From Planctomycetales bacterium (lineage in GTDB: Bacteria > 4484-113 > JAFGCY01): 32,000 nucleotides of DNA. The position numbers and the translations under genes were made by a program. Positions 10,331 through 29,703 of the stretch are shown piece after piece. The notes below the pieces were generated by a model, which saw only the letters and a list, made by a program, of their open reading frames with translations, made no database searches and was not told where the DNA came from. Location of the stretch: positions 2,040,001 through 2,072,000 of the forward strand of contig CP060262.1 in NCBI GenBank assembly GCA_022646745.1. Reading direction: 5' to 3'. How positions within the stretch are numbered: the first letter of the stretch is position 1; every line of letters starts with the position of its first letter.

Positions 10331-10522
10331 GCTCAACTGATAGCAGACCAGGCTGGTTTGATTGCCTTAACGGCATACTTCATTTCTGACATTCACTTGT
10401 CCTTTGCCTGACATTGGCAGCCTGCAACTGGGGAAAGTGCCCGTTGGCAGCCGCTAGACCCAGATTTAATCCATCATCGTTGCCAGCAGCACGATATTGG
10501 TGCCTGAATTCAGTTATATCTA

Positions 10523-11341
10523 TTGGACGTGGCAGGGAACCAGGCACAACAGGATCGCGACCTTGAGCAGTTGCTCGGGCCTTACCGCAAATGGCGCAAG
10601 CAGTGGATTGACGTGATTGCTCCCGCGATCAACAACCACAAGTTTGACGATGCCAGGGCAATGCTGGCTGCTGCACGGGAATCGGCCCGCTCATCCGAAC
10701 ATGCTGAGGAATTGCGTGAGGCGATGGAGTACCTTGTCGACTTCACGGAATGCCGTGTCAACTGGCATCCGGACAGCCATGGATACGGCCAGCGAGTGTA
10801 TGACGAGAAGATCCGCCGCTTCAGCAGGCCCGCGCGCGGTCGGCTGGGCGACTGCATCCGGCGCATGTACCTCGTCTACATCCGCTGCAACGGCACCTCA
10901 GACACATTTGACAACCTGACCAAGGGTGAGATCGAGGAAATCCTCGAACCGCTGCCCGAGCGGATGTCCGGCCCCGCCTGGCAGCAGATCGCCCGCTGGG
11001 CCTTCGAGCACAACGAGCTGGAAACGCTTGAGCGGGCCTTTGAGATGTTCCTGATCTACCCCGGCGAGGAGATGGGGCAGGCGAAATGGCAACGGGTCAA
11101 CCTGATGTACCAGCTGCTGTCCGGCAAGGCCACACGCCGCGATGTGTATGAGTCGATCATCCTGCTGGAGCTGAAGCCGCAGCTGCGTGAATTCAAGACT
11201 GAGTTCTGGCCGCGCTGCATTGCAATGGGGCTGGTTGACAGCGAACTGGAGCAGCTGCTGGCCGGGCGTGAGGCTGAGATCAGGTCCAGGGATTCCGTTG
11301 TCAAACCGGAAGCGAAGACCAAGTCACTGCTGGGGAAATAG
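10523..11341 (+). CDS. hypothetical alpha-helical protein, paralogue of 9566-10330
   Basis: The TTG start is placed by homology to the neighbour's N-terminus. It has the same conserved blocks and a K/S-rich C-terminal tail. Confidence 0.75.
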   Translation: MDVAGNQAQQDRDLEQLLGPYRKWRKQWIDVIAPAINNHKFDDARAMLAAARESARSSEHAEELREAMEYLVDFTECRVNWHPDSHGYGQRVYDEKIRRFSRPARGRLGDCIRRMYLVYIRCNGTSDTFDNLTKGEIEEILEPLPERMSGPAWQQIARWAFEHNELETLERAFEMFLIYPGEEMGQAKWQRVNLMYQLLSGKATRRDVYESIILLELKPQLREFKTEFWPRCIAMGLVDSELEQLLAGREAEIRSRDSVVKPEAKTKSLLGK

Positions 11342-11555: not shown

Positions 11556-12122
11556 ATGCTGGATTGGTTGTTCAACAGAAAGAAGCGTGAACCGGTTGAC
11601 CCGAATGATCTTGAGCCCCATTGGCAAAGGGACTGGCCCCTGGCAATACACCTGCCGAAGGGTGGCCATTTCGAGCGCGGCAAACCCTCGCACTACTTCA
11701 ACTGGAGCTTGCACCGTGATCATGTCGGGCCTGGTGGTTTCTACAACGTCGAGGGTGTGATGAATGTCTTCCCCGGTCGGCCGAAAGATGGTCCACTGCA
11801 TCCCCTGCTGCTGCCATTCATGATGATGGAGCTGTTTCCGCCGGAGGCACGCTACCTGAATGTTGGTGTGATGCTGCCGGCGGGAGGCAGAGAATGGACA
11901 GTGGTGCAGGCAATCCTGCCGAGTGATGGTGTGCGTGGCAACGAACCCGTGCGCCTTTTCTCCTGCATGACCGGTATGGAAGGGGAACCGGATCTGTTCG
12001 TATCTCTGCTGTGCATGCACTACCATCCCGAGGCACCGGATCTGCTTGAACGGCTGAAGGCCATGCTAGGCGGTGCTGATGGAGAATGGGACATGCGGCC
12101 GTGGCCTGAATCCAAGGTATGA
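11556..12122 (+). CDS. hypothetical protein
   Basis: I start it at ATG 11556 (MLDWLFNRKKREP...), because the upstream part of the track ORF (from 11484) runs through the repeat array. Composition looks like a normal soluble protein. No family recognised. Confidence 0.6.
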   Translation: MLDWLFNRKKREPVDPNDLEPHWQRDWPLAIHLPKGGHFERGKPSHYFNWSLHRDHVGPGGFYNVEGVMNVFPGRPKDGPLHPLLLPFMMMELFPPEARYLNVGVMLPAGGREWTVVQAILPSDGVRGNEPVRLFSCMTGMEGEPDLFVSLLCMHYHPEAPDLLERLKAMLGGADGEWDMRPWPESKV

Positions 12123-12175
12123 GTGGCAACTGGTATCTCATCCCCTGCCACCACGGGTTCGGCAAGCGCTGAATG

Positions 12176-13147
12176 CTACTCCCCTATATGCCGCATCATC
12201 ACCTGTTCGAAGCGGTCCATCTCACGCAGCAGTTCATCGCAGGCTGCTGGCCATTCCGATTCGTCAGATTGCCAACCGCCGCTGGGATAGTCGCAGCGGA
12301 TGCTGGCTGACATACTTTCCTCACGTGCATCCCAGGTCAGGGCCCCGCCGAATTCATGTTCAATATCTGTCTTGGCTGCCAGCAGTCTCTGAAATGCCTC
12401 CGTTGCCAGTTCCGGCTGGTTGCGATAGAACAGGTTCAGTTCAATTCTGCGGAACTCACCCATCAGGTGGAACACGAACCAGTGTCCGCTGATACCGCTG
12501 CTGTATTTCAGGTATTGCGAACCCGGCAGGTTGCCACTTCCGCCTATAAGGCGCTGGTACCACAGCCGGCCTGCTGCATCTGCCGGCCCATGGCCTTCCC
12601 ACGCCCGCTTCGACAGCAGCTCCCAGAATGAGCGGTAGTCCGCCTTGCGCTCCTCCAGTTCACGGCTGGCGCGCGCCGCCTGCTTCGTCTCGGGGCTGGG
12701 GCCATAGATCAGCGTTGGCAACAGCGCGGGCAGGCTGTCACCGATGCGGATCGCCTCCACCTGGACCAGGTAGAAGTCCGCCGGGAAATGCTCGTTCATC
12801 ACGCTGACGGCCTTGACGTGCTCGGCGCGCGCCTTCTCCACGATCCAGATCGCCACGTCGGCGTTCCAGGAGGCGTAGTAGCTGAGCAGCTGGCCGAGGT
12901 GCTTGTGGTCGCTGTCACCGAACTGGTTCTCGATCACCACGCTGCGCCCGCGTGCGTCGCTGGCGATGATGTCCACGCGAAAGTTCTCGAGCGTCTGCTC
13001 AATGCTTTCGAGGCTCAGCTCCAGCCCGACGAGCTCGCCGATCACATCAAGGTTCTGGGACAGCCAGGGGGTGAAGGCCAGCGCTTCATGTGGCCAGACA
13101 TCACGAACGGGAAGGCGCTCCACGCGCCCGGTCAGCGGAATGGACAT
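12176..13147 (-). CDS. PD-(D/E)XK-like N-terminal domain plus DUF4268-like C-terminal domain protein
   Basis: The N-terminus (FRVDIIASDARGRSVVIENQFGDSDHKHLGQLLSYY) has the D...(E)xQ/K restriction-endonuclease-like core seen in DUF4268-family proteins. The C-terminal half resembles DUF4268. Call by eye. Confidence 0.75.
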   Translation of the reverse strand: MSIPLTGRVERLPVRDVWPHEALAFTPWLSQNLDVIGELVGLELSLESIEQTLENFRVDIIASDARGRSVVIENQFGDSDHKHLGQLLSYYASWNADVAIWIVEKARAEHVKAVSVMNEHFPADFYLVQVEAIRIGDSLPALLPTLIYGPSPETKQAARASRELEERKADYRSFWELLSKRAWEGHGPADAAGRLWYQRLIGGSGNLPGSQYLKYSSGISGHWFVFHLMGEFRRIELNLFYRNQPELATEAFQRLLAAKTDIEHEFGGALTWDAREESMSASIRCDYPSGGWQSDESEWPAACDELLREMDRFEQVMMRHIGE

Positions 13148-13205
13148 GGGACTAAGGTAGCAGAGGGCAGTACGCTATCTGCCTCGCTTTATGCATATGC
13201 AGGAT

Positions 13206-13254
13206 CTACCGCTGAAGCAGGTAGCTCCTTGCCTGGCTTGCGCCAGACTCTCCC
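13206..13254 (-). repeat. post-stop GGAG/GNRA hairpin (stem-swapped variant) followed by GGAGCTACC hairpin variant
   Basis: After TAG (13257-13259) the minus strand reads GT GGGAGA GTCTGGC GCAA GCCAGGC AA GGAGCTACCTGCTTCAGCGGTAG. Confidence 0.65.
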
Positions 13255-15445: not shown

Positions 15446-16720
15446 ATGCCGCAGACCTCTCACAACACCCCGATTCCCGCCTTCATCATGCTCGCCGACG
15501 GTTACATCGCGCGGGGCCGCCAGATCGGCAAGCCCGGCACCACACTCGGCAAGCTGGTGTTCAACACCTCGATGATGGGCTACCAGGAAATCCTCACCGA
15601 CCCTTCCTACGCCGGTGAGATCATCACCTTCACCTTCCCGCTGATCGGGATCTACGGCGTGGCCGAGGGCGACCACCAGAGCCGCCAGGTCTTCGCGCGC
15701 GGGGTGGTGGTAAGCGAGCTGAACGCGACCTCCGACAACTGGCGCGCAGACCGCACGCTCAACGACATGCTGATGCACCAGGGCGTGACCGGCATCAGCG
15801 GGGTGGACACCCGCCGCCTGACGCGGCACCTGCGTGAGCAGGGCGAGATGCCCGGCATCATCACGAGCGAGCTGTCCGTCGAGGAAGCACGCAAGCGCCT
15901 CGCGGAAGCGCCGGACTTCGGCAGCGTGGACTTCGTCAGCGAGGTCACCACGCCGCAGGCCTATGAGGTGCCGGCGATCGCCCCGGATGCGACGCGCTTC
16001 GGCGCGGTTGACAACCCGCGCAGCGACATCACGATGTACAGCGGGCGGGAATTCACCGTGGCGGCCTACGACTTCGGCATCAAGCGCGGCATCCTCGACT
16101 GCCTGGCGCAGCGCGGCTGCACGGTGCACGTCTTCCCAAGTAGCGCCACCGCGGACGAGCTGCTGGCGGTCAGGCCGGACGGGATCTTCCTCTCGAACGG
16201 CCCCGGCGACCCGGAGCGAATGGACTACGTGCTGCCGCATATCCAGCAGCTGTGCGAAAACCTGCCGGTGTTCGGCATCTGCCTCGGGCACCAGCTGATC
16301 GCGCGCGCAATGGGCCTGCCGACCTACAAGCTGAAGTTCGGCAACCGCGGTGGCAACCACCCGGTGCTGGACCTGACGGATGGCCGCGTGCACATCTCGG
16401 CGCAGAACCACAGCTATGCCGTGGCGCTCGCTGACGGGGCACAGGGCCGGCCGGCGGCAGCCGCCGATGGGCGCGAGCGCAGGCCGCTCGGTGACGACCG
16501 CCCGACGGGGCCGTATGCGCACCCGATGAACCCGCGCGTGCTGGTGACGCACCTCAATGTCAACGACGGCAGCTGTGAAGGCCTGATGCTGGCGGACCGC
16601 CCGGTGTTCTCGGTGCAGTACCACCCGGAAGGCAGCCCCGGCCCGCGTGACAACACCTACCTGTTTGACAACTTCTGCCGAAACATGGAAGCGGCGCAGG
16701 GCGCAGCCGTCGGGGGTTAG
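15446..16720 (+). CDS. carA: carbamoyl-phosphate synthase small (glutamine amidotransferase) subunit
   Basis: Signature blocks are VFNTSMMGYQEILTDPSYAGEII, GIFLSNGPGDPE, PVFGICLGHQL (the catalytic Cys) and VQYHPEGSPGPRD (His/Glu). I start it at ATG 15446, because the upstream part of the track ORF crosses the heptad repeats. Confidence 0.9.
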   Translation: MPQTSHNTPIPAFIMLADGYIARGRQIGKPGTTLGKLVFNTSMMGYQEILTDPSYAGEIITFTFPLIGIYGVAEGDHQSRQVFARGVVVSELNATSDNWRADRTLNDMLMHQGVTGISGVDTRRLTRHLREQGEMPGIITSELSVEEARKRLAEAPDFGSVDFVSEVTTPQAYEVPAIAPDATRFGAVDNPRSDITMYSGREFTVAAYDFGIKRGILDCLAQRGCTVHVFPSSATADELLAVRPDGIFLSNGPGDPERMDYVLPHIQQLCENLPVFGICLGHQLIARAMGLPTYKLKFGNRGGNHPVLDLTDGRVHISAQNHSYAVALADGAQGRPAAAADGRERRPLGDDRPTGPYAHPMNPRVLVTHLNVNDGSCEGLMLADRPVFSVQYHPEGSPGPRDNTYLFDNFCRNMEAAQGAAVGG

Positions 16721-18552
16721 TCAATTGCCCCGGTCCATCGCGGCTCAAGTTCCACGCTGAAGATCTGGTCACCTTCGCCATCATCAGGCTGCAGCCGGAT
16801 GCCATGCAGGCCGATCATGCTCAGCAGCATTTTGCTCTCGGTGTTAGTCTGCCAACCCGGACTGGTCATTACCATCTGCACCGAGTTTCCATTGGTGCCA
16901 TTGTTCATTTCCCAGTCCGATTGCCAGGGGGTGTTATCAAGCGGCAGGTAGGCCTCATAGACGACCTGACCATCCATGTCATATATGCGATGGCGGCAGC
17001 AGTCAGATGATGGCAGGTAGTTTGCGAAGATATCCAGGCCAGCAAGCAGCAGGGGAGCAGTGACCTCGAATCCATGCACAAAAGTCCTGTCGCCCACCAC
17101 CTGGCAGACCTGTGAGCGCTCTATCGGCCGGTAGAAGCTGCCCCTGATTTCATTGCCAACGCTTGAAACAAAGAAGTCCCGGCTGTCCATCCAGATCTGG
17201 GCTGCGTCACCAACCACCACAGCGGCATCGGTCATGGTACTGTCAACGAAGTTCAACCGGCCATCCCAGTCAATGGATATCAATTGCTGTCCGGTTCTTG
17301 CCAGTAAGATGAGGGTATTGCCATCATTGGCAGAGCCGCACAGATCCAGACTGTAATGCATGCGTTCCTCGCCGTACTCCCAGCAGATTGTTCCATCGAA
17401 ATCCAGGCAGCAGATCCGTCCGTTGCGCAGGATAAGCAGCCGCTGTCGCTCATTGTCAACAATCAGTGACTGTTGGAGGGGAACCGGCCTTGCGTACTCC
17501 GCCGCATACATTTGCTCAGGCAGCAATGATTGTTTTTCCAGCTTCAGGCCGGCTGCCGGGCGCATGTCACTGATTCTTTGCAGTTCCCTGCCGGATTCAT
17601 CCAGCAGCAGCAGTGTGGAGGTGCCCAGCTCCGTAGCCTGCTTGAGGGAGACGATGATCCGGCCGGGCAGCACTGCCATTTCAGCTTCCTCTATTTCAAG
17701 GCCGGGATCCATCCTGATTTCAGCAATCAGGTCAAGTTGGTCTTCCAGCAGCCAGAATGAACCCTGACCATCTGTTGCGATGAAAATGCCGGCGCTGAAG
17801 CAGAATGCGCTGACAAGATTGGAAGATGGACGAAAGCTTTTCTCCACCTGCAGATGTCTGCCAAGCAGCTCCAAGCTGCCATTCCTGACAGTGGCTACCA
17901 GCCCCTGTCCGATCAATTCCGTTGCCAGCGGGTCAACGCTTATCGAACCCTGGCTGTCCAGCCGGCCATCCCCGGATAGCCAGTGGAGATCGTGCTTGCC
18001 ATCGAGGAAGACCACATCGCCATCCGCACATAGGAACAGGTTTTCCTTCCAGGAGCTTGCCACGGAGGGGACATCCAGTTCCCAGCCCATTGTGCCCGCC
18101 TCATCATATTGATACAAACGGTCAGTCCCTTCGTCACCCGGTCTGGTGAACATCTCTTCGTAACCCGGCCTGATGAGCAATACGGAGCTGGCGGGTTCGA
18201 CGGGCTGGACCAGCTCCGTACCAGTTGGGGACTTAACTGTCCAGGCAGGCTGACCGTCACGCACGCCTCGCAGTTCGTGGCCATGCGTGACTCTCGTATT
18301 GCCTACATCTACGCTGGGGAAGAATTGAACTCTTCCGTGATACTGAATGTAGTGCCCCCAGTCGCGGTCCTGGCTCATTGTGTAGCTGACCCGGAATCCA
18401 AGGGATTCATTGGATCGTATTGCCGCTTCCCTGCCGGTTGTCAATGCAAGTGCACCAGCCAGCCAGGCCAGGCACAGCAGCAAGGCGGTCCGCCAGAGCG
18501 AACGCCTGAATCTGCTGGATGCACCTCCTGCCACTGCGCTCCAAGCATACAT
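16717..18552 (-). CDS. membrane-anchored beta-propeller-like repeat protein, paralogue 1 of 4
   Basis: The N-terminus has an RFRR motif plus a TM segment (ALLLCLAWLAGALALT). It contains iterated D/G-x-G-x-hydrophobic-W repeats such as DGQPAWTV, AGTMGWEL, DGTICWEY and DWDGRLNF. It shares DGQGSFWLL and the C-terminal MLLSMIGL motif with its neighbours. Confidence 0.8.
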   Translation of the reverse strand: MYAWSAVAGGASSRFRRSLWRTALLLCLAWLAGALALTTGREAAIRSNESLGFRVSYTMSQDRDWGHYIQYHGRVQFFPSVDVGNTRVTHGHELRGVRDGQPAWTVKSPTGTELVQPVEPASSVLLIRPGYEEMFTRPGDEGTDRLYQYDEAGTMGWELDVPSVASSWKENLFLCADGDVVFLDGKHDLHWLSGDGRLDSQGSISVDPLATELIGQGLVATVRNGSLELLGRHLQVEKSFRPSSNLVSAFCFSAGIFIATDGQGSFWLLEDQLDLIAEIRMDPGLEIEEAEMAVLPGRIIVSLKQATELGTSTLLLLDESGRELQRISDMRPAAGLKLEKQSLLPEQMYAAEYARPVPLQQSLIVDNERQRLLILRNGRICCLDFDGTICWEYGEERMHYSLDLCGSANDGNTLILLARTGQQLISIDWDGRLNFVDSTMTDAAVVVGDAAQIWMDSRDFFVSSVGNEIRGSFYRPIERSQVCQVVGDRTFVHGFEVTAPLLLAGLDIFANYLPSSDCCRHRIYDMDGQVVYEAYLPLDNTPWQSDWEMNNGTNGNSVQMVMTSPGWQTNTESKMLLSMIGLHGIRLQPDDGEGDQIFSVELEPRWTGAID

Positions 18553-18610
18553 CCCCGCAGGGAAGTGGGATCAGCCGGGGCTTGACTGTCGGATCTTCAG
18601 GGGAGGCAGG

Positions 18611-20356
18611 TCAGTCCGCCGCCAGCTTGGCGATCATCGTCAAGGGGCCATAGGGCAGGGCCGGGCCGCTGGCGTGGTTGCGGAAGCCCAGCAGGCTGAG
18701 CATCGTGTACTGGCGGAACCAGGCCGGCTGCTGCTGGCGGGATTCCACCTTGAGGAAGTTGTCACCCCAGCCCGACGAGATATTCGGCAGCTCACTGACT
18801 GCAATGCGTTGGCGGCTGAGCAGCGTGCCATGCGCATCCAGCAGGCTGTGTCGGCAGCAGTACTGTATGTAGTGGCTGGCGGACTTCCCCGGGACGCTGA
18901 ACAGCAGCGGGGTGACGTTGTCAATCGGCTCAAGCACATGCACGAACAGCCGGCCGCTACTGGACTGCGCATAGACCTGGCCGCCGCGCGGTACCGGGAT
19001 TGGCTCCAGCAGGCCCTCTGCAGTGCAGGCCTGCAGGGTCCCGGCATCACTGCGCCAGTAGCCGTATCCGCCATGGTACTGCGGTGACTGCCCGGTTTCC
19101 AGCCTGGACTGCCACAGCACATTTCCATCCCAGTCCATCGCCAGCAGCTCGCGCTCGTGGCTGAGCAGCAGCTGTCCCTCGTAGGGGAAGTAGTAGTCAT
19201 TGTCCAGCGCGGAACTACCCAGCGGGTTGGCGGTTTCCCAGAGGACATTCAGCTCACTGTCCAGGCCCACCAGCTTGCTGTCCGTCGCCAGCAGGTGGCG
19301 CTCGCCGGAGCTGTCAGAGACCAGGAAATCAGTCAGCTTAAGGCTGAATATGGAATTGATGGGAACATTAAAGTAATCCCATTCAAATGGCTCATTCTGG
19401 CATCCGCCATATTTGTCATAATCCATTTCGTCCTTTCGCCAGAGCACACCGGCCGCACTGTCAACCAGAAGCAGGCTGGAGTGGGCCGGGTCTGCGGCGT
19501 TCTCCAGGTGCACTGCGAAGCGCTCACCGGCGGCGCTGAGGCACATCCTGCCCGAAGCGGGAGTGTCAGTGCTGAACCTCGCCAGCTCCTGCAAAGCGCT
19601 GTCGAGGATCCAGAAGCTGCCGTGGCGATCCGTCACCAGCAGGCAGCCATTACTCACGGACAGCACCGGCTCATTCCCGGTGGGACATTGCCAGCTCGCC
19701 TGCGCGCGCATTTTCGGGGAATAGAGTCTGATGCCGGAGCCACTGCGTGTCACGATCCCGATGCCTGACAGCGGGAAGCTGTACTCAGGGTCCAGCTCGA
19801 CATCCGCGCCGTGGACATTGCCGGCTGCGTCAATGTACAGCATGCGTGGTTCAGTGGTGCAGATGAATACGCCGTCATCCGGGCCGGCCTCCGTGGACTG
19901 GATCGTGCTGCCCTCGCTGAAGCTGATGCTGCGTTGCCAGATCGCCCTGCCGGACAGGTCAAAGCCACTCAACTGACAGGATGCTTCGCCACTGGACTGG
20001 CCCAGCACCAGCACCGGGCCGGCCGCGCAGTCAAAGCGCGGGAAGTGACTGTCGGCCTCAACCGCTTGCCGCCAGAGTTCGTCCTGCCCACGGAAAGCCA
20101 CCAGCAGGCCGTTGCTGATGGTGAAGTACTGTTCTTCCGGCCCCTGGCAGAATCCATAGCGCACACGGGTAGCGGGCAGCGAGCAGATGAAACCGCCGGT
20201 GTTCGGCGGCGGGGCACTGGCTCCTTCGATCAGCATGTAGCGCACATGCTGCCCCGGGTCGCGCGGTGCGGAAAGCTTCAGCGGGACGAGTGCAAGGCTG
20301 CCCAAGAGCCAGATTGCCACAAACAGCATTGCCACCCGCTTCTGCAGCAGCCTCAT
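18611..20356 (-). CDS. membrane-anchored beta-propeller-like repeat protein, paralogue 2 of 4
   Basis: I take the start as ATG 20356 (MRLLQKRVAMLFVAIWLLGSLAL). The longer track ORF overlaps the upstream gene. Repeats include SGRAIWQRS, AGVLWRKD, LNVLWETA and DWDGNVLWQS. It also has DRHGSFWIL and MLSLLGF motifs. Confidence 0.8.
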   Translation of the reverse strand: MRLLQKRVAMLFVAIWLLGSLALVPLKLSAPRDPGQHVRYMLIEGASAPPPNTGGFICSLPATRVRYGFCQGPEEQYFTISNGLLVAFRGQDELWRQAVEADSHFPRFDCAAGPVLVLGQSSGEASCQLSGFDLSGRAIWQRSISFSEGSTIQSTEAGPDDGVFICTTEPRMLYIDAAGNVHGADVELDPEYSFPLSGIGIVTRSGSGIRLYSPKMRAQASWQCPTGNEPVLSVSNGCLLVTDRHGSFWILDSALQELARFSTDTPASGRMCLSAAGERFAVHLENAADPAHSSLLLVDSAAGVLWRKDEMDYDKYGGCQNEPFEWDYFNVPINSIFSLKLTDFLVSDSSGERHLLATDSKLVGLDSELNVLWETANPLGSSALDNDYYFPYEGQLLLSHERELLAMDWDGNVLWQSRLETGQSPQYHGGYGYWRSDAGTLQACTAEGLLEPIPVPRGGQVYAQSSSGRLFVHVLEPIDNVTPLLFSVPGKSASHYIQYCCRHSLLDAHGTLLSRQRIAVSELPNISSGWGDNFLKVESRQQQPAWFRQYTMLSLLGFRNHASGPALPYGPLTMIAKLAAD

Positions 20357-20439
20357 TCTGATGAGTGCAATGTCAAGACCCACAGGCAATGATACCCGCT
20401 TTGCCAATTCCTTGTGTGAAGACGGCCCCGCGAGCGGCG

Positions 20440-22233
20440 TCAGCGCTCTTCCAGCAGGAATTCGCAACGTGCAAATCCCTTGTGTGGGCCGCCTGTTCCG
20501 AGTGCCTTGCCAAAGCCTGCCAGGCTGAGCATGCTGCGGCTGCGTGCCCACGCTGGGATCGTGGCGGCGGATACTGAAGCGGGCACGCCGCCCCCGGCAT
20601 GCACAGCGCTGTCCACACTGAGGAATGGCAACCTGCCTCGATGCAATTCCTCGCCGGACAGATTGACAACCCGGTGCAGGATGCACAGTTGGTTCGAGCC
20701 TGAATGCGGCCTGTGCTGCATCAGTTCCATGAAGTAGTTCAACGGGCTGTTACAGGGCGTGTACTGGTGGACCAGCAGTTCCCCTTCCCACTCCTGGCAA
20801 CTGAAGCCGGTGCTGCCGATCGGCAGTCGGGGCTCCAGCAGCCTGCCGTCCTGCATCACCTGCAGCAGGCCGGAGCTGTGGATCCAGGCGCAGTAGCTGG
20901 TGCCAACAAATGCTTCCGAGTCCTTTGCAATGTCGTCATACCAGAGCAGTTCGCCAGCGGGGGAGACTGCCAGCAGCGGGTCACTGACCTGTGGATTGAA
21001 ACCGAAGACTTCAAACTGGACTCCACGCAGGATCAGGTTGTCATCCGGCAGGGGAATCCCGCTGGGCTGGAGCAGGCTGTCAATGCCGACCAGGGGCAGC
21101 TGCCAGCGCAGGCTGGTATCAGCACCGATGCAGGCCAGGCCATCGCGGCTCTGGATCAGCATGCTGCCATCATCCCAGCCCGGCACCAGCAGGTCCGCCA
21201 GCGGTGGATTCTCCAGCAGGTCATCACCTTCGCGCCATGTGTAGCTGTCCCATGGCCCGAAGGAGTAGTCAAAGTTGTGTGGCAGCTTCAGGCGTGGGGC
21301 GGTGATGGTCCAGCTGTGACGGCCGCTGCTGTCAAACATCCAGAGCTCGCCGTAGCCCAGTTGCAGTCCGTGCTCCTTGCCAAGCAGGATCGCGGTGCAA
21401 TCTCCCATTGAATAGACATGCAGCAGCTTGCTGAAGGCTGGATCAGCGCTGAAGCTGAACAGTTCCTCCAGCTGCATGTTGAGCCCCCAGTAGTGGCCAT
21501 CACCATCGTTGGCAATGATCACAGGTCCCTGGTAGTGCACCGAGTCAATCCGGCCTGTCGGGCTATGCCAGCTGTGCAGCTCCCGCATGTGCAGGTCATA
21601 GTATGCGAGCCTGTCCCCCACCGGTGTGATGATGCAGCGGTTGCGCACCAGCAGCGAATCGTGGATTGACATGCTCGCCGCGGGAACTGGCAACAGCCGT
21701 CCATCAGGAGCGACCGGCTGGATGTCTCCATCGTTCAGTAGCACCAGTGCAAAGCCGTCAGCCCCGACGCATACGCTAGCCTCCTGCGGATAATCATATT
21801 GTCCACCCAGCGGTGTGGTCCAGAGCAGCTCTCCATCGCTGCTGACGGCACTCAAGCTGGTCAGCTCCTTGTCACTGTCACGCTGCATTACGCGGAACTG
21901 CCTGTCCCCGAAATCTGATGAGACCAGCACGCTGTTTGCGGCGACCTCCAATCGCCATTGTTCCGTTCCGTCGTCAAGGTAAACGAGCTGGCCGTCGTCG
22001 ATGTAGTACTCGAGCTGTGGCCATTCGCCGTATTCAAGATCGTCAGTTTCCCAGAGTGAGGAATCTGAGTACCGGTATGCTTCGAATCGGTAAGTAATGT
22101 CCAGCTGTGACGGATCATGCTGCCGGGCCAGCCTCGCGACCCCGATCAGCAGGCAGCCTGTGAGCCACAGGGTAAAGAACAGCAAGCCGCAGCGCAGCAC
22201 AGTCCTTTGGAAGCGGGCCGCCCTGTCCCCCAT
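20440..22233 (-). CDS. membrane-anchored beta-propeller-like repeat protein, paralogue 3 of 4
   Basis: The start is ATG 22233 (MGDRAARFQRTVLRCGLLFFTLWL), with GGGAG 5 nt upstream and only 10 nt after the stop of the preceding gene. Repeats include DGELLWTT, TSLRWQLPL and AGELLWYD. It also has DGDGHYWGL and MLSLAGFG motifs. Confidence 0.8.
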   Translation of the reverse strand: MGDRAARFQRTVLRCGLLFFTLWLTGCLLIGVARLARQHDPSQLDITYRFEAYRYSDSSLWETDDLEYGEWPQLEYYIDDGQLVYLDDGTEQWRLEVAANSVLVSSDFGDRQFRVMQRDSDKELTSLSAVSSDGELLWTTPLGGQYDYPQEASVCVGADGFALVLLNDGDIQPVAPDGRLLPVPAASMSIHDSLLVRNRCIITPVGDRLAYYDLHMRELHSWHSPTGRIDSVHYQGPVIIANDGDGHYWGLNMQLEELFSFSADPAFSKLLHVYSMGDCTAILLGKEHGLQLGYGELWMFDSSGRHSWTITAPRLKLPHNFDYSFGPWDSYTWREGDDLLENPPLADLLVPGWDDGSMLIQSRDGLACIGADTSLRWQLPLVGIDSLLQPSGIPLPDDNLILRGVQFEVFGFNPQVSDPLLAVSPAGELLWYDDIAKDSEAFVGTSYCAWIHSSGLLQVMQDGRLLEPRLPIGSTGFSCQEWEGELLVHQYTPCNSPLNYFMELMQHRPHSGSNQLCILHRVVNLSGEELHRGRLPFLSVDSAVHAGGGVPASVSAATIPAWARSRSMLSLAGFGKALGTGGPHKGFARCEFLLEER

Positions 22234-22243
22234 GCCTGCTCCC

Positions 22244-23965
22244 TCAGCCCTGCGGCTGGCGGAAGATGAACTCCCATGTTTCGTAGCTGCTGCTGTATCC
22301 GCCGTATCCACCGTAGGCGGCGTAGCTTCGCTGCGGGTAGGCCACCACCGCCAGGCTGCCATCCGGCTGGCGGTGCAGCCGGTCGATGTCCATCCGTTCC
22401 GGCAGCAGGGCCCGCCACAAGCGCTCTCCCTGCTTGTCATAGCAGTCCACATAGGCCCGCTCGGAGAGGTCCAGCGCACGCCGCAGGTCGTCCAGCAGCC
22501 AGTTGTAGCCGGCGATCTCCTGGTTGGAGTTGCGCACGTAGATGTACTCGCCGTCCTTTGTCACGTTGTATTCGTCGCCTTCCGCCAGTTCGAGGTCCAG
22601 TACCAGCTCACCGCTGGAGTTGATCCCGCTCAGTCTGTTGTCAATCGTGCGGAAGGTGGTCAGGCCTCCGGCGCTGCTGACGACGCGCATCAGGCCGAAG
22701 CGGTCGGCCAGCTCATAGCGCCACTGCTCGTTGCCGTCCCAGTCCAGCGAGATCAGCTCGTGGTCGCGCACATGCACCACCAACCGCTCGTCATCGGAGC
22801 TGACAACCTCACCGGAGGGCCCGCAGTTCAGGCTCCACAGTTCACGCCACTGGCTGTCAACGCAGTACACGCTCTCCACGCCGGCCTTGAACACGCGCCG
22901 CCCGTCCGGCCCGCTGATGAAGTTCTCCGAGGCGCTGACGTCGCCAGGATAGCCGAAGTAGGGGTAGCCCTGGCCATGCCATAGCCGCTCACCCAGAGCC
23001 GAAATGACCATCCAGTCGCTGGTGTTGAAGAACAGGATTGTGAATCCATCGATTTCCTCGGCATGGAAATTGCTGGACTGCGTGCCATAGGCATCCGCAA
23101 TCGTCGGTGGCAGGCTGTCCTTCCAGGCCACATTGCCATTTCCGTCAAGGCAGTGCAGGCGCATCAGCCTGTCCCGTGCAATGATGCTCTGGCCAGCGGT
23201 GGCCGCAAACAGAATCTGTGTGCCATCGTCCGGCGTGTACTCCCAGTCCGGTTCAAAGGCGGCCGTCCAGCAGCGCAGCCGGCCCGTTCCGCCTTCCACC
23301 ATGAAGCGTCCAGCGTCCGGCAGCGGCTGTGTATGGCGCATGTCGGTGTCAAGCTGGAAGCGACGCAGGGCCTTGCCATCGGCACTGATCCAGGCCACGT
23401 TGCCGGACTCTCCGCAGACCGCCAGGGTGCCATCCGGACCGACGCTCGCCAGGCTGTCCAGCGGGGTCTGCAGTGGCAGTTGCCAGAGCAGTGCACCGCC
23501 GGGGCTGATGGCGCTTGCTGTGCAGTCGCCAGTCGCCGGGTCAAAGCCCAGCACCCTGATGTGCTCTGTCCCTCCCCAGGGCGTTGCCAGCCGCAGGTTG
23601 CCCGAGAGCGGCACTTCCCATGCCACGCTGCCATCCTTATCCAGCCTGACCAGTCCGCGCCCCATCACCCGCAGCGGGCCGCCCGACAGGCGGGGATCAT
23701 CTTCACTGGTCGTGAAGGAACCATAGGGGCTGTAGAAGCTGGAGCTGGCGATCTGGTAGTCGGTCTCGGGCATCGCCAGGCGCATCTCCGCCGGGGCCAG
23801 TGTCCGCACGCCATGCAGGCGGTGCCGGTTGGCCAGCCACAGCGGCAGGGCCACCAGCAGCCACAGCGCGGGAAGGCCCAGCAGCACCGTGCGCAGCTGG
23901 CGCACGAAGCGCAGGCGAGCGCTGAACTCACCGCCGGGCTGCATTGTGCTGTAATCCCACACCAT
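22244..23965 (-). CDS. membrane-anchored beta-propeller-like repeat protein, paralogue 4 of 4
   Basis: The N-terminus is ARLRFVRQLRTVLLGLPALWLLVALPLWL. There are nine or more repeats of type DGSVAWEVPL, GGALLWQLPL, GNVAWKDSL, DGNEQWRYEL and GERLWRALL, as in PQQ/BamB-like propellers. An alternative start is ATG 23944. Confidence 0.8.
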   Translation of the reverse strand: MVWDYSTMQPGGEFSARLRFVRQLRTVLLGLPALWLLVALPLWLANRHRLHGVRTLAPAEMRLAMPETDYQIASSSFYSPYGSFTTSEDDPRLSGGPLRVMGRGLVRLDKDGSVAWEVPLSGNLRLATPWGGTEHIRVLGFDPATGDCTASAISPGGALLWQLPLQTPLDSLASVGPDGTLAVCGESGNVAWISADGKALRRFQLDTDMRHTQPLPDAGRFMVEGGTGRLRCWTAAFEPDWEYTPDDGTQILFAATAGQSIIARDRLMRLHCLDGNGNVAWKDSLPPTIADAYGTQSSNFHAEEIDGFTILFFNTSDWMVISALGERLWHGQGYPYFGYPGDVSASENFISGPDGRRVFKAGVESVYCVDSQWRELWSLNCGPSGEVVSSDDERLVVHVRDHELISLDWDGNEQWRYELADRFGLMRVVSSAGGLTTFRTIDNRLSGINSSGELVLDLELAEGDEYNVTKDGEYIYVRNSNQEIAGYNWLLDDLRRALDLSERAYVDCYDKQGERLWRALLPERMDIDRLHRQPDGSLAVVAYPQRSYAAYGGYGGYSSSYETWEFIFRQPQG

Positions 23966-24013
23966 GCGCAGTATAACGGAGAGCCGCCCTCAGGCGTTCG
24001 ATCAGGCCACGGC

Positions 24014-27000
24014 TCAGCTGCGGCTGACCGAGTAGCGGAAGTCCATCCCGTCCACCTCGGTCTCCAGTGCCGTACCGGCCGGCTCGCCGCGCTCGAGGCT
24101 GTCAGCCAGGGTCTCCTGCATCACGTAGTCGCGGTGCACCTCAAGCGCCGCCGCCACCTCATCCGTGGAGCTGTACACCACCTTGATGCGGTCCTGGTAG
24201 TCCAGGTCGAGCGTCTTGCGCTGGCCCTGCAGGCGGTTGACAACCTCGCGCGCGAGGCCCTCCTTGCGCAGCTCATCGCTGATCTGTGTGTCCAGCACCA
24301 GAAGCAGGTTGCCATCGCGCTCGCAGACCGTGTCCGGCTTCTGCTCGAGGTGTACCTCGAAGCAGCTCTCGTCAATCACGAAGGTCTCGCCGCCAAGCTC
24401 GAACTCGACCCAGTTGAGCATCTGCCCGCTGCGGTCCAGCGCTTCCCGCGGGAAGTCACGGTGCGCCTCAAGCTGCGCGGTGATCTCCGCCGCATTGCCG
24501 GCGATCCAGTTGGCGACATCCTTGGCGGACTTGCCGAACAAGGGCCCGAGCTGGCGGAAGGCAGGTTTGTAGCTGTAGGAGACGTACTCCGTCTCATCCT
24601 CGGCCCACTCCAGCTGCTTGATGTTGAGCTCCTCATGCATGATGCCCAGGTAGCGCTCGATCGCCGGCTTGAGGTCCTCGTCGTGCGTGATCAGCGTGGC
24701 GCGGCTGAGCGGCTGGCGCACTCGCACCCCACTGGCCTTGCGGGCGGCATGCCCGAGGCTGACACTGCGGCGCACCTGGTCCATGCTGAACTCCAGCTCG
24801 TCGTCAGCCAGCTCCATGTCGGCCACGGGATAGCTGTCGAGGTGCACGCTCTGGGGCGCGTCGTCATTGAAGGGCAGCACCAGCTTCTGGTACAGCTCCT
24901 CTGCCAGGAATGGCGTGAAGGGCGCGACTGCGCGGCTCAAGGTGCAAAGCAGGTTGTACAGCGTCTGGTAGGCGGCCCACTTCTCGGTGTTCTTCTCGCC
25001 CTGCCAGAAGCGGCGCCGGCTGCGGCGCACGTACCAGTTGGTGGTGGCCTCCACCAGCTCCTCAAACTGCGCGGCAGCCTGGGTCAGCTCCAGGTTGTCA
25101 AGGTGGCGCGTGACGTTGTCAATGCAGCGGTTGAGCTTGATCGTGATCCAGCGGTCAAGGTCGGACAGCTCCTCCCAGGGCACGCTGTGCGCATTCGGGT
25201 CGTACTCGTCGATGTTGGCGTAGATCGTGAAGAAGCTGTACACGTTCCACAGCGGGATGATGAAGCGCTGCAGGCTCTCCACCACGCCGCTGTCACTGAA
25301 GCGCGCACCGCTGAACAGGTTGCCGCTGGAGTAGAAGTACCAGCGGAAGGCATCGGCACCGTGGCTGTTGATCACCTTCCAGGGATCCACCACGTTGCCA
25401 AGCCGCTTGCTCATTTTCTGGCCCTTCTCGTCGAGGATGTGGCCGAGCACGAGGCAGCTCTTGTAGCTGGGCTCGCCCTTGATGATCGTCGAGATCGCAT
25501 GCAGGGTGTAGAACCAGCCGCGGGTCTGGTCGACGGCCTCGGAGATGAAGTCCGCCGGGAACTGCCGGTGCTGGCCGTCGCCATCGATCAACTCACGGTT
25601 CTCGAAGGGGTAGTGGATCTGCGCGAAGGGCATGCTGCCGGCGTCGAACCAGGGGTCGAGGATGTAGCGCTCGCGCTCCTTCGTGCCCTTGCCGCACTCG
25701 CTGCATTCCCAGGTGAAGTCGTCGATGTAGGGCCGGTGCGGGTTGAACTGCGACTGGTCGTAGACATCCGTCACGTTGGCAAACCTGTCCGGGCAGCGCT
25801 CCTGCAGTTCGGCATAGCTGCCGAGGCATTCCTGGTGTCCGCAGGAGCTGCAGGTCCAGACCGGCAGCGGCGTGCCCCAGAAGCGGTCGCGCGACAGCGA
25901 CCAGTCCTTCACATCCTCCAGCCAGTTGCCGAAGCGGCCGTCGCGGATGTGCTCCGGCTGCCACCTGATCTTCTGGTTGTTGTCAATCAGCTCCTGCTGC
26001 AGCTCCGGCATGCGGATGAACCAGCTGTCCAGCGGGTAGCTCATCAGCGGCGCATCCGTGCGGTAGCAGTGCGGGTAGTTGTGTGCGTACTTCTGGCTCT
26101 TGAACAGCAGCCCGCGCTTCTTCAGGTCGGTGATCACGTCCGGGTCAACGTCCTTGAACCACTTGCCCGGTGCCAGCTTGACGCCCTCGACCGCGCGGCC
26201 CTCGGAGTTCATCGCGCACAGGATCGGCAGGTTCTCACGAAGGCCGATGCGGTAGTCGTCCTCACCGAAGGCCGGCGCGAGGTGCACGATGCCGGTTCCG
26301 TCCTCGAGCGTTACATAGGTGTCGGCCAGCACATGCCAGCCGTTCTTCATGCTCTGCTCGCGCAGCTGGCGCACGATGCTTTCGTTGTCACTTTCATTGC
26401 CCTGCGGCGCGGGGCGCACACCGCTCTCCTCCAGTTCACCGGGGGAGTAGCGGCGGATGTTGGGCACATCGTAGGCGAACAGGCGCTCGTAGGCCAGCCC
26501 GGCCAGCTCGCTGCCCTTCACGCGTGCCACGATGGGCTCGCTCTCCAGGCCGTTCTTGGCCAGCAGGCCCTCGGCCAGCACCAGGTGCTCCTGCACCTCG
26601 CGCGCCTTGTTGTACATGCTGACGACGACGTATTCGTAGTCCGGGTGCACGCAGAGCGCCACGTTGGACAGGAGCGTCCAGGGCGTGGTGGTCCACAGCA
26701 GCAGGTATGTGTTGTCACCGGCGGAGAAGTCGCCGATCCTCGTGCCCCGCGGCACATGTGCGCGCACGGTCACGCTCGGGTCCTTGACGGTCTGCCAGTT
26801 CTGCGCCACCTCGTGGCTGGACAGGCCGGTGCCGACCAGCGTGGAGTACCACTGGATCTTGTAGCCCTTGTACATCAGGCCGCGGTCGTGGATCTGCTTC
26901 AGCAGGTTCCAGACGCTCTCGACATACTTGTTCGTGAAGGTGAAGTAGGCGTTGTCATAGTCCAGCCAGAAGCCGATGCGGTTGGAGAGCTTGACCCACT

Positions 27001-27427
27001 CCGCCTCGTAGCGGCGCACGCTTTCGAAGCAGCGGCGGTTGAACTTCTCCATCCCGTAATTGAGGATGGCCTGCGGGCCGCTTTCGGTCATCTCGCCGCT
27101 TTCGATCAGCTCCTTCTCGACGGACAGCTCGACGGGCAGGCCATGGGTGTCCCAGCCGGCCTGGCGGCGCACGTAGTAGCCCTGCATGGTGCGGAAGCGC
27201 GGCAGGCAGTCCTTGATCACGCGCGTCAGCACGTGGCCGGGATGCGGCAGGGAGTTGGCCGTCGGCGGGCCCTCATAGAACACGAAGCTGCCCTGCGGCG
27301 CATCCTTCTCCAGGCTTTGCTGGAAGATCCGCTGGTCCTCCCAGAAGGACTGGATGGACTGCTCCATCGCCGGGAAGTTGTAGCTCGTGTCAACCTTCTC
27401 GAATCTGCTCTGTCGCTTGCTGGACAT
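24014..27427 (-). CDS. ileS: isoleucine--tRNA ligase, type 2 (long form)
   Basis: It has the HIGH-type motif PHPGHVLTRVIKD, the KMSKS motif KMSKRLGN, a CP1 editing domain and a Cys cluster (CSSCGH...CSECG). The N-terminus (FPAMEQSIQSFWEDQRIF) and the 1137-aa length fit the type-2 form. GGAG lies 9 nt upstream of the ATG. Confidence 0.95.
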   Translation of the reverse strand: MSSKRQSRFEKVDTSYNFPAMEQSIQSFWEDQRIFQQSLEKDAPQGSFVFYEGPPTANSLPHPGHVLTRVIKDCLPRFRTMQGYYVRRQAGWDTHGLPVELSVEKELIESGEMTESGPQAILNYGMEKFNRRCFESVRRYEAEWVKLSNRIGFWLDYDNAYFTFTNKYVESVWNLLKQIHDRGLMYKGYKIQWYSTLVGTGLSSHEVAQNWQTVKDPSVTVRAHVPRGTRIGDFSAGDNTYLLLWTTTPWTLLSNVALCVHPDYEYVVVSMYNKAREVQEHLVLAEGLLAKNGLESEPIVARVKGSELAGLAYERLFAYDVPNIRRYSPGELEESGVRPAPQGNESDNESIVRQLREQSMKNGWHVLADTYVTLEDGTGIVHLAPAFGEDDYRIGLRENLPILCAMNSEGRAVEGVKLAPGKWFKDVDPDVITDLKKRGLLFKSQKYAHNYPHCYRTDAPLMSYPLDSWFIRMPELQQELIDNNQKIRWQPEHIRDGRFGNWLEDVKDWSLSRDRFWGTPLPVWTCSSCGHQECLGSYAELQERCPDRFANVTDVYDQSQFNPHRPYIDDFTWECSECGKGTKERERYILDPWFDAGSMPFAQIHYPFENRELIDGDGQHRQFPADFISEAVDQTRGWFYTLHAISTIIKGEPSYKSCLVLGHILDEKGQKMSKRLGNVVDPWKVINSHGADAFRWYFYSSGNLFSGARFSDSGVVESLQRFIIPLWNVYSFFTIYANIDEYDPNAHSVPWEELSDLDRWITIKLNRCIDNVTRHLDNLELTQAAAQFEELVEATTNWYVRRSRRRFWQGEKNTEKWAAYQTLYNLLCTLSRAVAPFTPFLAEELYQKLVLPFNDDAPQSVHLDSYPVADMELADDELEFSMDQVRRSVSLGHAARKASGVRVRQPLSRATLITHDEDLKPAIERYLGIMHEELNIKQLEWAEDETEYVSYSYKPAFRQLGPLFGKSAKDVANWIAGNAAEITAQLEAHRDFPREALDRSGQMLNWVEFELGGETFVIDESCFEVHLEQKPDTVCERDGNLLLVLDTQISDELRKEGLAREVVNRLQGQRKTLDLDYQDRIKVVYSSTDEVAAALEVHRDYVMQETLADSLERGEPAGTALETEVDGMDFRYSVSRS

Positions 27428-27608: not shown

Positions 27609-27690
27609 TGCCGGGAACCGGACTCGAACCGGTACGGGTTACCCCGGGAGATTTTAAGTCTCCTGCGTCTGCCAATTCCGCCATCCCGGC
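27609..27690 (-). tRNA. tRNA-Leu (anticodon UAA)
   Basis: The minus strand folds as a type-II cloverleaf. The acceptor is GCCGGGA/TCCCGGC with discriminator A, and the D-stem is 3 bp. The anticodon stem GGAGA/TCTCC carries loop CTTAAAA, there is a long variable arm, and the T-arm is ACCGG-TTCGAGT-CCGGT. No CCA is encoded. Confidence 0.9.
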
Positions 27691-28413: not shown

Positions 28414-28509
28414 TCGATCGCCGGATCGACCAGCGGAAGCCATTCCCAAGGAGTGGCATAGATTGGAAGTAGAAGCTTTTTTCCACAACGTACCACATTC
28501 GTCAGGTGC

Positions 28510-28538
28510 GAGCCACTACTGCTAAAGCAGGTAGCTCC
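28510..28538 (-). repeat. GGAGCTACC hairpin module (inverted copy)
   Basis: The plus strand reads GAGCCACTACTGCTAAAGCAGGTAGCTCC, the exact reverse complement of 14892-14920. Confidence 0.85.
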
Positions 28539-28608
28539 GATCTACGCATCCCACATCCCTCATCCTTCGTCCCTTCTGGTCCCCGGTCCCAGGTCCCTGT
28601 TCCCTGGA
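28539..28608 (-). repeat. ten phased heptads (G-rich on minus strand)
   Basis: The plus strand reads GATCTAC GCATCCC ACATCCC TCATCCT TCGTCCC TTCTGGT CCCCGGT CCCAGGT CCCTGTT CCCTGGA. On the minus strand the array runs in phase into the GGAGCTACC module. Confidence 0.8.
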
Positions 28609-29021
28609 TTTCACTGTGTCCCAATTACCCGGGCACAATTGTGTCTTTGTAAGCGGGCACAGTTCGGAAACAATATACGTGACGGTGGCACACTGTGCTT
28701 TCCCCGCCGGGTGGTGGGGCTGCAGGATGTACATACCTCTTGCACTTATCACCCCCTGTGGCCCGCCTTCGGTTCATCCGGATCCAGCGGAGGGGCACAG
28801 TTTACACCGTCATCACGGACAGCAGGCGCGGTGATGCTTCGGTCAGACGTCTTTCCTGACGGGCCGAATGAAGCTGGAGTGGACACGCACTGACCGCAAA
28901 AGCGATTACTGCATCTGCGCCCTGTCCGTGGCGTCCCCTGTCAGGGGACTTGCGGGTTATCCCGCAGGATAGTTGGATCGGGCCGGCTGACGGCCCCCTG
29001 GCACCGGAGCGCGACACGCCC

Positions 29022-29040
29022 GGAGGAAGCGAAAGCTTCC
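29022..29040 (+). repeat. isolated GGAG/GNRA hairpin
   Basis: GGAG GAAGC GAAA GCTTC C. It has the same GGAG-stem-GNRA-stem layout as the post-stop modules. Confidence 0.4.
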
Positions 29041-29139
29041 CCTTGCCGGAAACCGCCGCTTTGGGAAAGTGTGCCGGCAGCCAAGAGAACCGGTCGGATT
29101 ATGGATCCGGCCGGTTTCCGCTTTTCTGGCGGAGGTGCG

Positions 29140-29195
29140 GATCGGGTTTCGGGGATCCGGTTTCCGGTTTCGGGGAACGGGAACCTGGATCAGGG
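29140..29195 (+). repeat. eight phased heptads (NNNCNGG type)
   Basis: Units GATCGGG TTTCGGG GATCCGG TTTCCGG TTTCGGG GAACGGG AACCTGG ATCAGGG. The array is preceded by a truncated GGAGGTGCG (29131-29139) and runs in phase into the next module. Confidence 0.75.
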
Positions 29196-29198
29196 ATC

Positions 29199-29227
29199 GG
29201 AGGTGCGCAACTTGATTGCGCACAATG
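29199..29227 (+). repeat. GGAG/TGCGCA hairpin module (copy 4 of 4)
   Basis: GGAGGTGCGCAACTTGATTGCGCACAATG. Confidence 0.85.
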
Positions 29228-29631: not shown

Positions 29632-29660
29632 GGCGTCGCGGGGCGCCGCCGCTACACGTT
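29632..29660 (-). repeat. degenerate GTAGCGGCGGCG hairpin module
   Basis: The minus strand reads AACGTGTAGCGGCGGCGCCCCGCGACGCC, which resembles AACAGTAGCAGCGGCGTCCCCGCCGCTG at 14971-14999. Confidence 0.4.
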
Positions 29661-29702: not shown

Positions 29703-29703
29703 T

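Follow-up and report, generated by a model that had tools for sequence, protein, structure and literature searches.

What are the four consecutive genes that lie directly downstream of the isoleucyl-tRNA synthetase gene ileS in an uncultured wastewater bacterium, and how are they related to one another and to known protein families? The genes, here named G1 to G4, are four intact minus-strand open reading frames (ORFs), co-directional with ileS, in a 32,000-nucleotide (nt) stretch of contig CP060262.1 (positions 2,040,001 to 2,072,000; hereafter the window). The original prediction, made from the DNA letters, described them as four divergent tandem paralogues of a membrane-anchored, propeller-like protein following ileS, and the ORFs, blastp, hhalign, Pfam, PDB profile searches and AlphaFold and Foldseek analyses all agree with that description. 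The four genes are homologous, as predicted, but they are not equivalent: mapping of phyletic distribution and synteny separates a core gene, G1, from accessory genes of variable copy number, G2 to G4. The locus comprises, in window coordinates:

24014-27427, minus strand: ileS, 1137-amino-acid (aa) isoleucyl-tRNA synthetase, the upstream gene of a putative operon (from the ORF list)
23966-24013, minus strand: ileS-G1 spacer, 48 nt, without a terminator-like element
22244-23965, minus strand: G1, 573 aa, ATG start; conserved core member, a predicted N-terminally anchored PQQ-like beta-propeller repeat protein
20440-22233, minus strand: G2, 597 aa, ATG start; accessory paralogue, alignable with G3 and G4 over its full length
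18611-20356, minus strand: G3, 581 aa, ATG start; accessory paralogue
16717-18552, minus strand: G4, 611 aa, ATG start; accessory paralogue, the most divergent and with the lowest GC content at third codon positions (GC3)
15446-16720, plus strand: carA, convergent; Pfam CPSase_sm_chain and GATase; conserved right-hand border of a variable slot

Full-length paralogues with PQQ-like propeller blades

Pairwise blastp alignments among G2, G3 and G4 span their full lengths at 21-22% identity (E values from 1e-8 to 1e-19), and G1 gives weak pairwise blastp matches to all three. The relationship of G1 to the others is seen at the profile level, where hhalign matches the G1-family profile (six orthologues) to the G2-4-type profile (eleven sequences) with a probability of 99.6% and E 1e-23 over 500 collinear columns, a span that runs from an N-terminal R-F box to near the C-terminus. 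This end-to-end match points to one architecture common to all four proteins. Taken with the domain and structure searches below, these comparisons confirm G1-G4 as full-length paralogues predicted to consist of PQQ-like beta-propeller blades.

G1 scores 62 bits against Pfam PQQ_2 (PF13360; gathering cut-off 27.6), and its orthologues in the related loci L013 (61 bits) and L010 (73 bits) also pass. G2 (15.3 bits) and G3 (22 bits) fall below the threshold and G4 has no Pfam match. PQQ_2 in G1 is the only curated match, and it is generic, in line with the failure of the original prediction to recognise a characterised family beyond the repeat type. The G2-4 profile matches designed Cake and Bagel propellers in the PDB with E values of 2e-14 to 1e-5; with either subfamily as query, PDB profile matches include designed Cake, Bagel and Scone propellers, a 'Cell surface protein' and YxaL, and 3hxj (deposited as 'Pyrrolo-quinoline quinone') is matched by G1 queries only.

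The predicted structures are also of propeller type. The AlphaFold model of G3, built from a 4-sequence alignment, has a predicted local distance difference test (pLDDT) score of 57 and a predicted TM-score (pTM) of 0.45; its residues 2-28 form an N-terminal helix and the rest of the chain is all-beta. The model of G4, from an 11-sequence alignment, reaches pLDDT 64.8, rising to 74-92 in the core, and pTM 0.58. In both models the N-terminal helix is followed by about 38-44 short strands, which would correspond to roughly 9-10 four-stranded blade units per protein. Among the best 50 Foldseek matches listed for the G3 and G4 models in the PDB, all are propellers, including 2ymu, Cake9/10, BamB, YxaL, EMC1 and tandem WD propellers (TM-scores 0.2-0.46); the matches of the G4 model include Cake9/10, BamB, EMC1 and tandem propellers. 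Structure prediction and profile searches had been named beforehand as what might overturn the original prediction, and they returned propeller-type models and matched no family of established function.

Counting of motifs gives a more modest picture of the repeats than the 'many' short copies first described. The strict form of the blade motif occurs just 2-3 times per protein and the looser form 7-12 times, although profile methods confirm multiple PQQ-like blades. Likewise, of the two motifs assigned to three members each, DGxGSFW[LI]L has exact copies in G3 and G4 and a variant in G2 (DGDGHYWGL), and MLSLxGF has exact copies in G2 and G3 and a variant in G4 (LLSMIGL). Invariant W, G, D, C and H residues and the subfamily motifs are retained.

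Comparison with characterized propellers

These features place G1-G4 close to the propellers of the PQQ-like clan (PQQ_2 PF13360 and Beta-prop_ACSF4 PF13570), with which they share the blade pattern D/G-G-x-h-x-W; scores above the PQQ_2 threshold are reached by G1 and its orthologues, and most of the best PDB profile matches are propellers of this clan, including the designed Cake, Bagel and Scone proteins whose natural templates belong to it. Unlike typical members, G2-G4 stay below the Pfam threshold, the family has its own R-F...W helix, a length of about 580 aa and its own motifs (DWDG, C-x-D, CCRH / VDCYD, MLSLxGF / WEFxFRxP), and full-length relatives are found in one narrow uncultured lineage only. 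G1-G4 form a new and narrow subfamily of the uncharacterised PQQ-like propellers, a class that is itself very large and well known. A literature search found no description of the family.

A first candidate for the role of G1, and perhaps of the others, is that of the BamB-type outer-membrane assembly factor of this lineage. BamB (YfgL) is likewise a non-enzymatic PQQ-like propeller that serves as a membrane-tethered periplasmic scaffold for protein interactions; Pfam PQQ_2 is named after it, BamB structures are among the Foldseek matches, and the automatic annotation of IMG names P0006, an accessory protein of L010, BamB. The host, moreover, is probably diderm, as suggested by a window ORF (83-2215, running in from near the window start) that matches the C-terminal part of TamB (PF04357). 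The specific comparisons go the other way. Against the BamB equivalog model, NCBIfam TIGR03300, G1 scores 20 bits where the cut-off is 285, and G2-G4 do not match; the Foldseek TM-scores to BamB are 0.3-0.4. BamB is an 8-bladed outer-membrane lipoprotein of about 390 aa, whereas G1-G4, at 570-610 aa and about 9-10 predicted blades, are some 200 residues longer and anchored by a hydrophobic helix, and the 20-residue helix of G1 would tether it to the inner membrane. A lipobox Cys is lacking in G1, G3 and G4, and a lipobox-like sequence occurs only in G2-type proteins and in the accessory protein of L013. We consider a BamB-type role very unlikely, and the name given to P0006 an over-naming.

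The name given to G1 by NCBI, 'PQQ-binding-like beta-propeller repeat protein', raises a second candidate, that G1-G4 are PQQ-dependent (quinoprotein) dehydrogenases, and one quinoprotein, 4mh1, does appear at Foldseek rank 42. Yet neither the PQQ enzyme repeat (PF01011) nor any NCBIfam dehydrogenase model matches G1-G4, PDB sequence and profile searches with the family returned no quinoprotein dehydrogenase, and the best matches are mostly designed, cofactor-free propellers. The chance that these proteins are dehydrogenases seems to us minimal. We found no cofactor or catalytic signature at the level of family profiles, individual PQQ- or metal-binding residues not having been examined. This lack of a profile-level signature makes a non-enzymatic, protein- or ligand-binding envelope scaffold the most likely function.

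Two further propellers offer parallels. YxaL of Bacillus (7dxn / 7eq5 / 7evf) is also an extracytoplasmic, cofactor-free PQQ-like propeller and is matched by profile at E 1e-4 to 1e-6, but it consists of one secreted 8-bladed propeller, about 370-415 aa long, and the matches span only 60-110 residues. EMC1, of the eukaryotic endoplasmic reticulum membrane protein complex, is a large luminal PQQ_2-related propeller scaffold with a single transmembrane (TM) helix and is a Foldseek match of G4; its TM helix is C-terminal, however, and it is a eukaryotic subunit of a multi-subunit insertase, so that the resemblance is at the level of the fold only. Pfam Beta-prop_EMC1_N does not match any of G1-G4.

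A conserved, probable N-terminal anchor

Each of G1-G4 has exactly one hydrophobic stretch, N-terminal, 18-20 residues long and preceded by Arg residues, as had been proposed in the form of one TM helix after an Arg-rich box. The stretches are encoded as follows:

23831-23890, minus strand: G1 hydrophobic helix, residues 26-45, following the R-F box (R19 F20); the only hydrophobic 19-mer in G1
22135-22191, minus strand: G2 hydrophobic stretch, residues 15-33, ending in a lipobox-like L-T-G-C
20279-20335, minus strand: G3 hydrophobic helix, residues 8-26
18436-18489, minus strand: G4 hydrophobic helix, residues 22-39

Among 14 sequences drawn from both subfamilies, a mid-helix Trp (W35 in G1) is present in all 14 and a Phe in the preceding tail (F20 in G1) in 12. 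The helix is also better conserved than the rest of the protein, with an identity of 0.30-0.33 compared with 0.17-0.20 in the ectodomain. Such conservation is unlike that of ordinary signal peptides and argues for an uncleaved anchor that interacts specifically with a shared partner or with other family members. The conserved N-terminal element is R-F, not R-R. A Tat (twin-arginine translocation) motif (S/T-R-R-x-F-L-K) does not fit the family: RR occurs only in G4 of the window (SRFRRSLW), is R-H in the L007 orthologue and is absent in G1-G3.

The anchor is not uniform at its outer end. A lipobox-like L-[T/A/L]-G-C closes the stretch in G2 (LTGC), in the G2 orthologue of L007 (LAGC) and in P0007, the accessory protein of L013 (L013_acc, L013 12424-14181; LLGC). 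At the position of this Cys the rest of the family has S, A, L or V, and no Cys is found at the stretch end in G1, G3 and G4. G2, its L007 orthologue and P0007 may instead be lipoproteins, which suggests that the mode of membrane attachment differs within one family. Within the ectodomain, the Cys residues at positions C368 and C508 of G1 recur in 11 and 13 of the 14 sequences, respectively, and P0007 has lost the two together, a pattern consistent with an extracytoplasmic disulfide.

A conserved core gene and a variable slot

We ran an exhaustive G2-G4 profile search over 1.84 billion sequences that represent about 15 billion proteins. The search returned five full-length clusters of the G2-G4 type and one 120-aa fragment (P0008). 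Three of the five clusters are the window genes or orthologues 80-92% identical to them, and the other two are P0006 and P0007; the remaining profile matches are multi-stretch, blade-level matches to generic SBBP, DUF5122 or PQQ_2 proteins. A word-indexed homologue search returned little besides the query itself and an 87% orthologue, and since it missed the paralogues of the window it is uninformative on the breadth of the family. Searches of genome and metagenome contigs with G4-type patterns gave no match, and related genomes were recovered through G1 alignment only. Exact look-ups of P0002 and P0007 gave no record, and the locus of P0007 was identified by way of L013. NCBI names G2-G4 'hypothetical'.

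The related loci share a constant backbone in which ileS is followed by G1, a slot and the convergent carA. G1 orthologues lie directly after ileS in L007 (97% identity), L010 (39%), L012 (53%), L013 (52%) and L014 (44%), and carA borders the slot in these five loci and in the window. The content of the slot changes from one locus to the next:

window and L007: three accessory genes
L010: one accessory gene, P0006
L013: one accessory gene, P0007
L012: no propeller gene; a HigB-like toxin gene and an HTH_3/Peptidase_M78 gene instead
L014: slot empty, G1 abutting carA

By neighbour joining, G1 sequences and accessory sequences fall into separate clades in 100 of 100 bootstrap replicates, and G4 groups with P0006 of L010 with the same support; the placement of P0007 is weak (with G2 in 54 of 100). 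This topology implies that the splits between G2, G3 and G4 are old and that copies have been lost in other lineages. G1 is shown by these observations to be a conserved core gene, and G2-G4 to be a separate, very rare and fast-evolving accessory subfamily present in three, one or no copies.

We further note that the slot of L012 ('bacterium AC1.30'), at 11816-13220, holds the HigB-like toxin gene (PF05015) and, overlapping it, a 383-aa gene with HTH_3 and Peptidase_M78 (ImmA/IrrE-type) domains. As to the host, the window genome is a 4.11 Mb contig of about 62% GC deposited as 'Planctomycetales bacterium', and related metagenome-assembled genomes, from Hong Kong saline activated sludge, were labelled 'UBP7' by their depositors (L011 and L013 records; PMC8495973). 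UBP7 (Candidatus Bimafiota) as now described has genomes of 0.83-1.39 Mb and 36-53% GC (PMC11382960). This description clashes with the size and GC content of the window genome, and we therefore rely on no phylum assignment.

Fast evolution of the accessory copies

L007 is a conspecific-level sister haplotype whose flanks are 97-100% nucleotide-identical to the window, and L010 is a distant relative; the within-species comparison is between two haplotypes, the window and L007. Amino-acid identities of the window genes are:

ileS: 98.4% to L007, 81.9% to L010
carA: 98.6% to L007, 80.7% to L010
NAGPA: 98.8% to L007
polB: 80.4% to L010
G1: 97.2% to L007, 39.4% to L010
G2: 92.3% to L007; no L010 counterpart
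G3: 87.3% to L007; no L010 counterpart
G4: 80.1% to L007, 27.1% to the positional orthologue P0006 of L010

At the amino-acid level the accessory copies change 5-12 times faster than the flanking housekeeping genes, with frames intact, and all insertions and deletions between the window and L007 are in frame. The ratio of nonsynonymous to synonymous substitution rates (dN/dS) between the two haplotypes, estimated by NG86 and YN00 respectively, is 0.11 and 0.03 for ileS, 0.09 and 0.04 for carA and 0.10 and 0.06 for G1. It rises to 0.34 and 0.27 for G2, 0.25 and 0.15 for G3 and 0.31 and 0.29 for G4. G2-G4 evolve fast, under purifying selection that is weakened but real.

Synonymous divergence is raised as well, with dS (NG86) of 0.29 in G3 and 0.35 in G4 against about 0.09. 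A neighbouring gene, o11484, combines a low GC3 (0.62) with a low dS (0.078), so that weak codon bias is not by itself a sufficient explanation of this rise. Along the locus, nucleotide identity forms a mosaic, with patches of 75-83% at the G2 N-terminus, in mid-G3 and at the G4 N-terminus and an abrupt return to 97-99% in carA. Sliding-window dN/dS reaches about 0.7-1.0 locally, at residues 61-210 of G3 and 31-90 of G4; no well-supported window exceeds 1, and the few G2 windows with higher values contain 4-5 substitutions. Gene conversion among the paralogous copies was considered and rejected, a DNA-level repeat search having given only codon-level matches of 16-31 nt, such as that of the MLSLxGF motif. 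Elsewhere in the window, a tract of about 2.2 kb (8500-10700) is 100% nucleotide-identical to L007 between neighbours at 92-98%, which points to recent recombination or transfer between haplotypes.

The suggestion that the family is diversifying holds for the fast divergence and does not extend to positive selection, given gene-wide dN/dS of 0.15-0.34 and local maxima of about 0.7-1.0; diversifying selection on G2-G4 is possible from these sequence comparisons. In its full form, this explanation would make G2-G4 a recognition or immunity array of membrane-tethered periplasmic propellers that bind changing foreign molecules (interbacterial toxins, phage or predator factors, or variable substrates), with selection for novelty accounting for both their speed and their copy-number variation. 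It fits a divergence gradient set inside an otherwise 97-100% identical region, the mosaic patches that end abruptly in carA, the rise of dS together with dN in G3 and G4 that codon bias alone is insufficient to explain, the local peaks of dN/dS, and a slot that holds a HigB toxin-antitoxin pair in L012 and 0 to 3 copies elsewhere. It is harder to reconcile with gene-wide dN/dS well under 1 between the two haplotypes. PADLOC defence models match none of G1-G4, and the sole PHROGs match, weak and to a generic beta-propeller repeat protein (E 4e-4), is G1, which lies outside this explanation. No effector, toxin, type VI secretion system or phage gene adjoins the four genes in the window, where the neighbours are housekeeping or unrelated genes. 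Finally, in a diderm, periplasmic proteins tethered to the inner membrane are not surface-exposed. We regard such an array as unlikely.

The same data may be read in the opposite sense, with G2-G4 as redundant duplicates of G1 under relaxed constraint and heading to loss, their speed and low GC3 reflecting weak selection and low expression. Their absence in L012 and L014, the single copies in L010 and L013, a dN/dS about three times that of the flanking genes and a departure of GC3 and codon usage from genome-typical values that grows in the order G1 < G3 < G2 < G4 all agree with this. Against decay, dN/dS is clearly below 1, both haplotypes retain intact frames although the encoded proteins differ at 8-20% of amino acids, the indels are all in frame, the invariant W, G, D, C and H residues and subfamily motifs are kept, and a G4-type positional orthologue persists across a split at which ileS is 82% identical. 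Redundancy on its way to loss is, in our judgement, also improbable.

Base composition also enters these arguments. The distal genes had appeared by eye to be richer in AT than ileS and carA, and they are: GC is 0.605 in G2, 0.627 in G3 and 0.563 in G4 compared with 0.641 in ileS and 0.676 in carA (G1, 0.651), and the difference is stronger in GC3, at 0.73, 0.79 and 0.645 compared with 0.91 and 0.90 (G1, 0.82). The codon-usage distance from the local housekeeping set climbs as GC3 drops, again in the order G1 < G3 < G2 < G4. GC3 is lowered in other hypothetical genes of the window too, which suggests that reduced GC3 is a general property of accessory genes here.

A proposed lineage-restricted envelope family

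We favour, with some confidence, the explanation that G1-G4 belong to a lineage-restricted envelope family with a common architecture, for which we infer a non-enzymatic binding or scaffold role. Each protein would begin with a short Arg-rich cytoplasmic tail containing R-F, followed by a hydrophobic helix with the invariant Trp (W-L-x-G/V-x-L), an extracytoplasmic domain of about 520 residues with some 9-10 PQQ-like blades, and a short, poorly modelled C-terminal tail. The positive-inside rule predicts an N-in, C-out topology, placing the propellers in the periplasm, tethered to the inner membrane, with G2 perhaps a lipoprotein. Their role would be analogous to that of the PQQ-like propellers BamB, YxaL and EMC1, and the conserved tail and helix could dock the proteins to one another or to a shared partner in the membrane. 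In this explanation G1, probably co-transcribed with ileS, would provide a constant function and G2-G4 dispensable, rapidly changing specificities.

Several points weigh against this explanation. The pLDDT values (57 and 65) and TM-scores (0.2-0.46) are too low to fix the number of blades or the closure of the ring, and one large propeller or two would be compatible with them. The small-x-small motifs of G3 and G4 (SLA, ALA), and the lipobox-like LTGC inside the hydrophobic stretch of G2, would also fit a cleavable signal peptide. The functions of the members are inferred only, and no interaction partner is apparent in the conserved neighbourhood; fast evolution and absence in L012 and L014 would also fit a low functional importance of G2-G4. 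Lastly, the relatives share general synteny, so the kept adjacency of ileS and G1 is no proof of functional or transcriptional coupling.

An extension of the envelope-family explanation, to which we give little weight, would make the slot between G1 and carA a dedicated site of diversification, and the locus an undescribed envelope conflict or recognition module of an uncultured lineage. G1 and a changing set of paralogues would then share the tail and TM helix as a docking motif, and the paralogues would supply fast-evolving periplasmic recognition or immunity specificities.

If the envelope-family explanation is true, the locus provides a clean natural set of core and accessory paralogues, with a conserved envelope propeller linked to an essential gene and, beside it, optional copies that diverge fast and come and go among close relatives. 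It would also be a tractable case for the diversification of repeat-protein binders in an uncultured lineage from wastewater. PQQ-like propellers to which no function has been assigned are abundant, and the locus gives no sign of a new mechanism. Public annotation is corrected in two respects, G4 being truncated in every record seen and P0006 over-named 'BamB'.

Gene calls, spacers and transcription

The full-length call of G4 from the ATG at 18552 is backed by an in-frame MYAWSAVAG..SRFR..LLLCL.WLAG that is kept in L007. Public calls for G4 and its orthologues (L001-L009) disagree with one another (478, 538, 553 and 573 aa) and all omit the N-terminal R-F...W helix. The ATG of G2 is a GTG at the same position in L007. 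The ATG of G3 at 20356 is a TTG in L007, and a GTG at 20383 is kept in both the window and L007; G3 may accordingly be 590 aa long, with a start at this GTG and a G2-G3 spacer of 56 nt.

With the starts listed above, the spacing is as tight as originally described: 48 nt between ileS and G1, 10 nt between G1 and G2, 83 nt between G2 and G3 and 58 nt between G3 and G4, with the 3' end of carA running 4 nt into the end of G4 as a convergent overlap. A terminator scan of the spacers from ileS to G4 found none, their folding compared with shuffled sequences is at chance (the ileS-G1 spacer has a z-score of +0.89, that is, no extra structure), and promoters in the spacers are at chance level. The lack of a terminator or structured spacer, together with an adjacency kept in five lineages, makes co-transcription of G1 with ileS plausible. 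In E. coli and many bacteria, ileS forms an operon with lspA, an envelope-related membrane protein gene immediately downstream and co-directional. The downstream gene here encodes a propeller protein, not signal peptidase II, so that the analogy is positional only.

The ileS product carries the Pfam domains tRNA-synt_1, Anticodon_1 and DUF5915 (annotation of an identical product). Upstream of ileS lies a tRNA-Leu(TAA) gene (27609-27690, minus strand), the only match of an Rfam scan of the window, followed by a terminator-like hairpin (27497-27472) about 45 nt upstream of the ileS start. The position of this hairpin between the tRNA gene and ileS means that ileS probably has its own promoter or depends on read-through. 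We also note that the G2-G3 spacer (20357-20439) and the start of G3 are about 96% conserved between the window and L007, above the coding sequence on both sides, and that this spacer contains a perfect TTGACA hexamer in the window and ATGACA in L007.

Farther upstream, the window and L010 both carry a family-B DNA polymerase gene upstream of an S1-domain gene (29740-31971 in the window). At the place of the polymerase, L007 has a 1017-aa PKD/PQQ_2 protein (window 28450-30500 compared with L007 1-2100), and the alignment collapses past about 29400.

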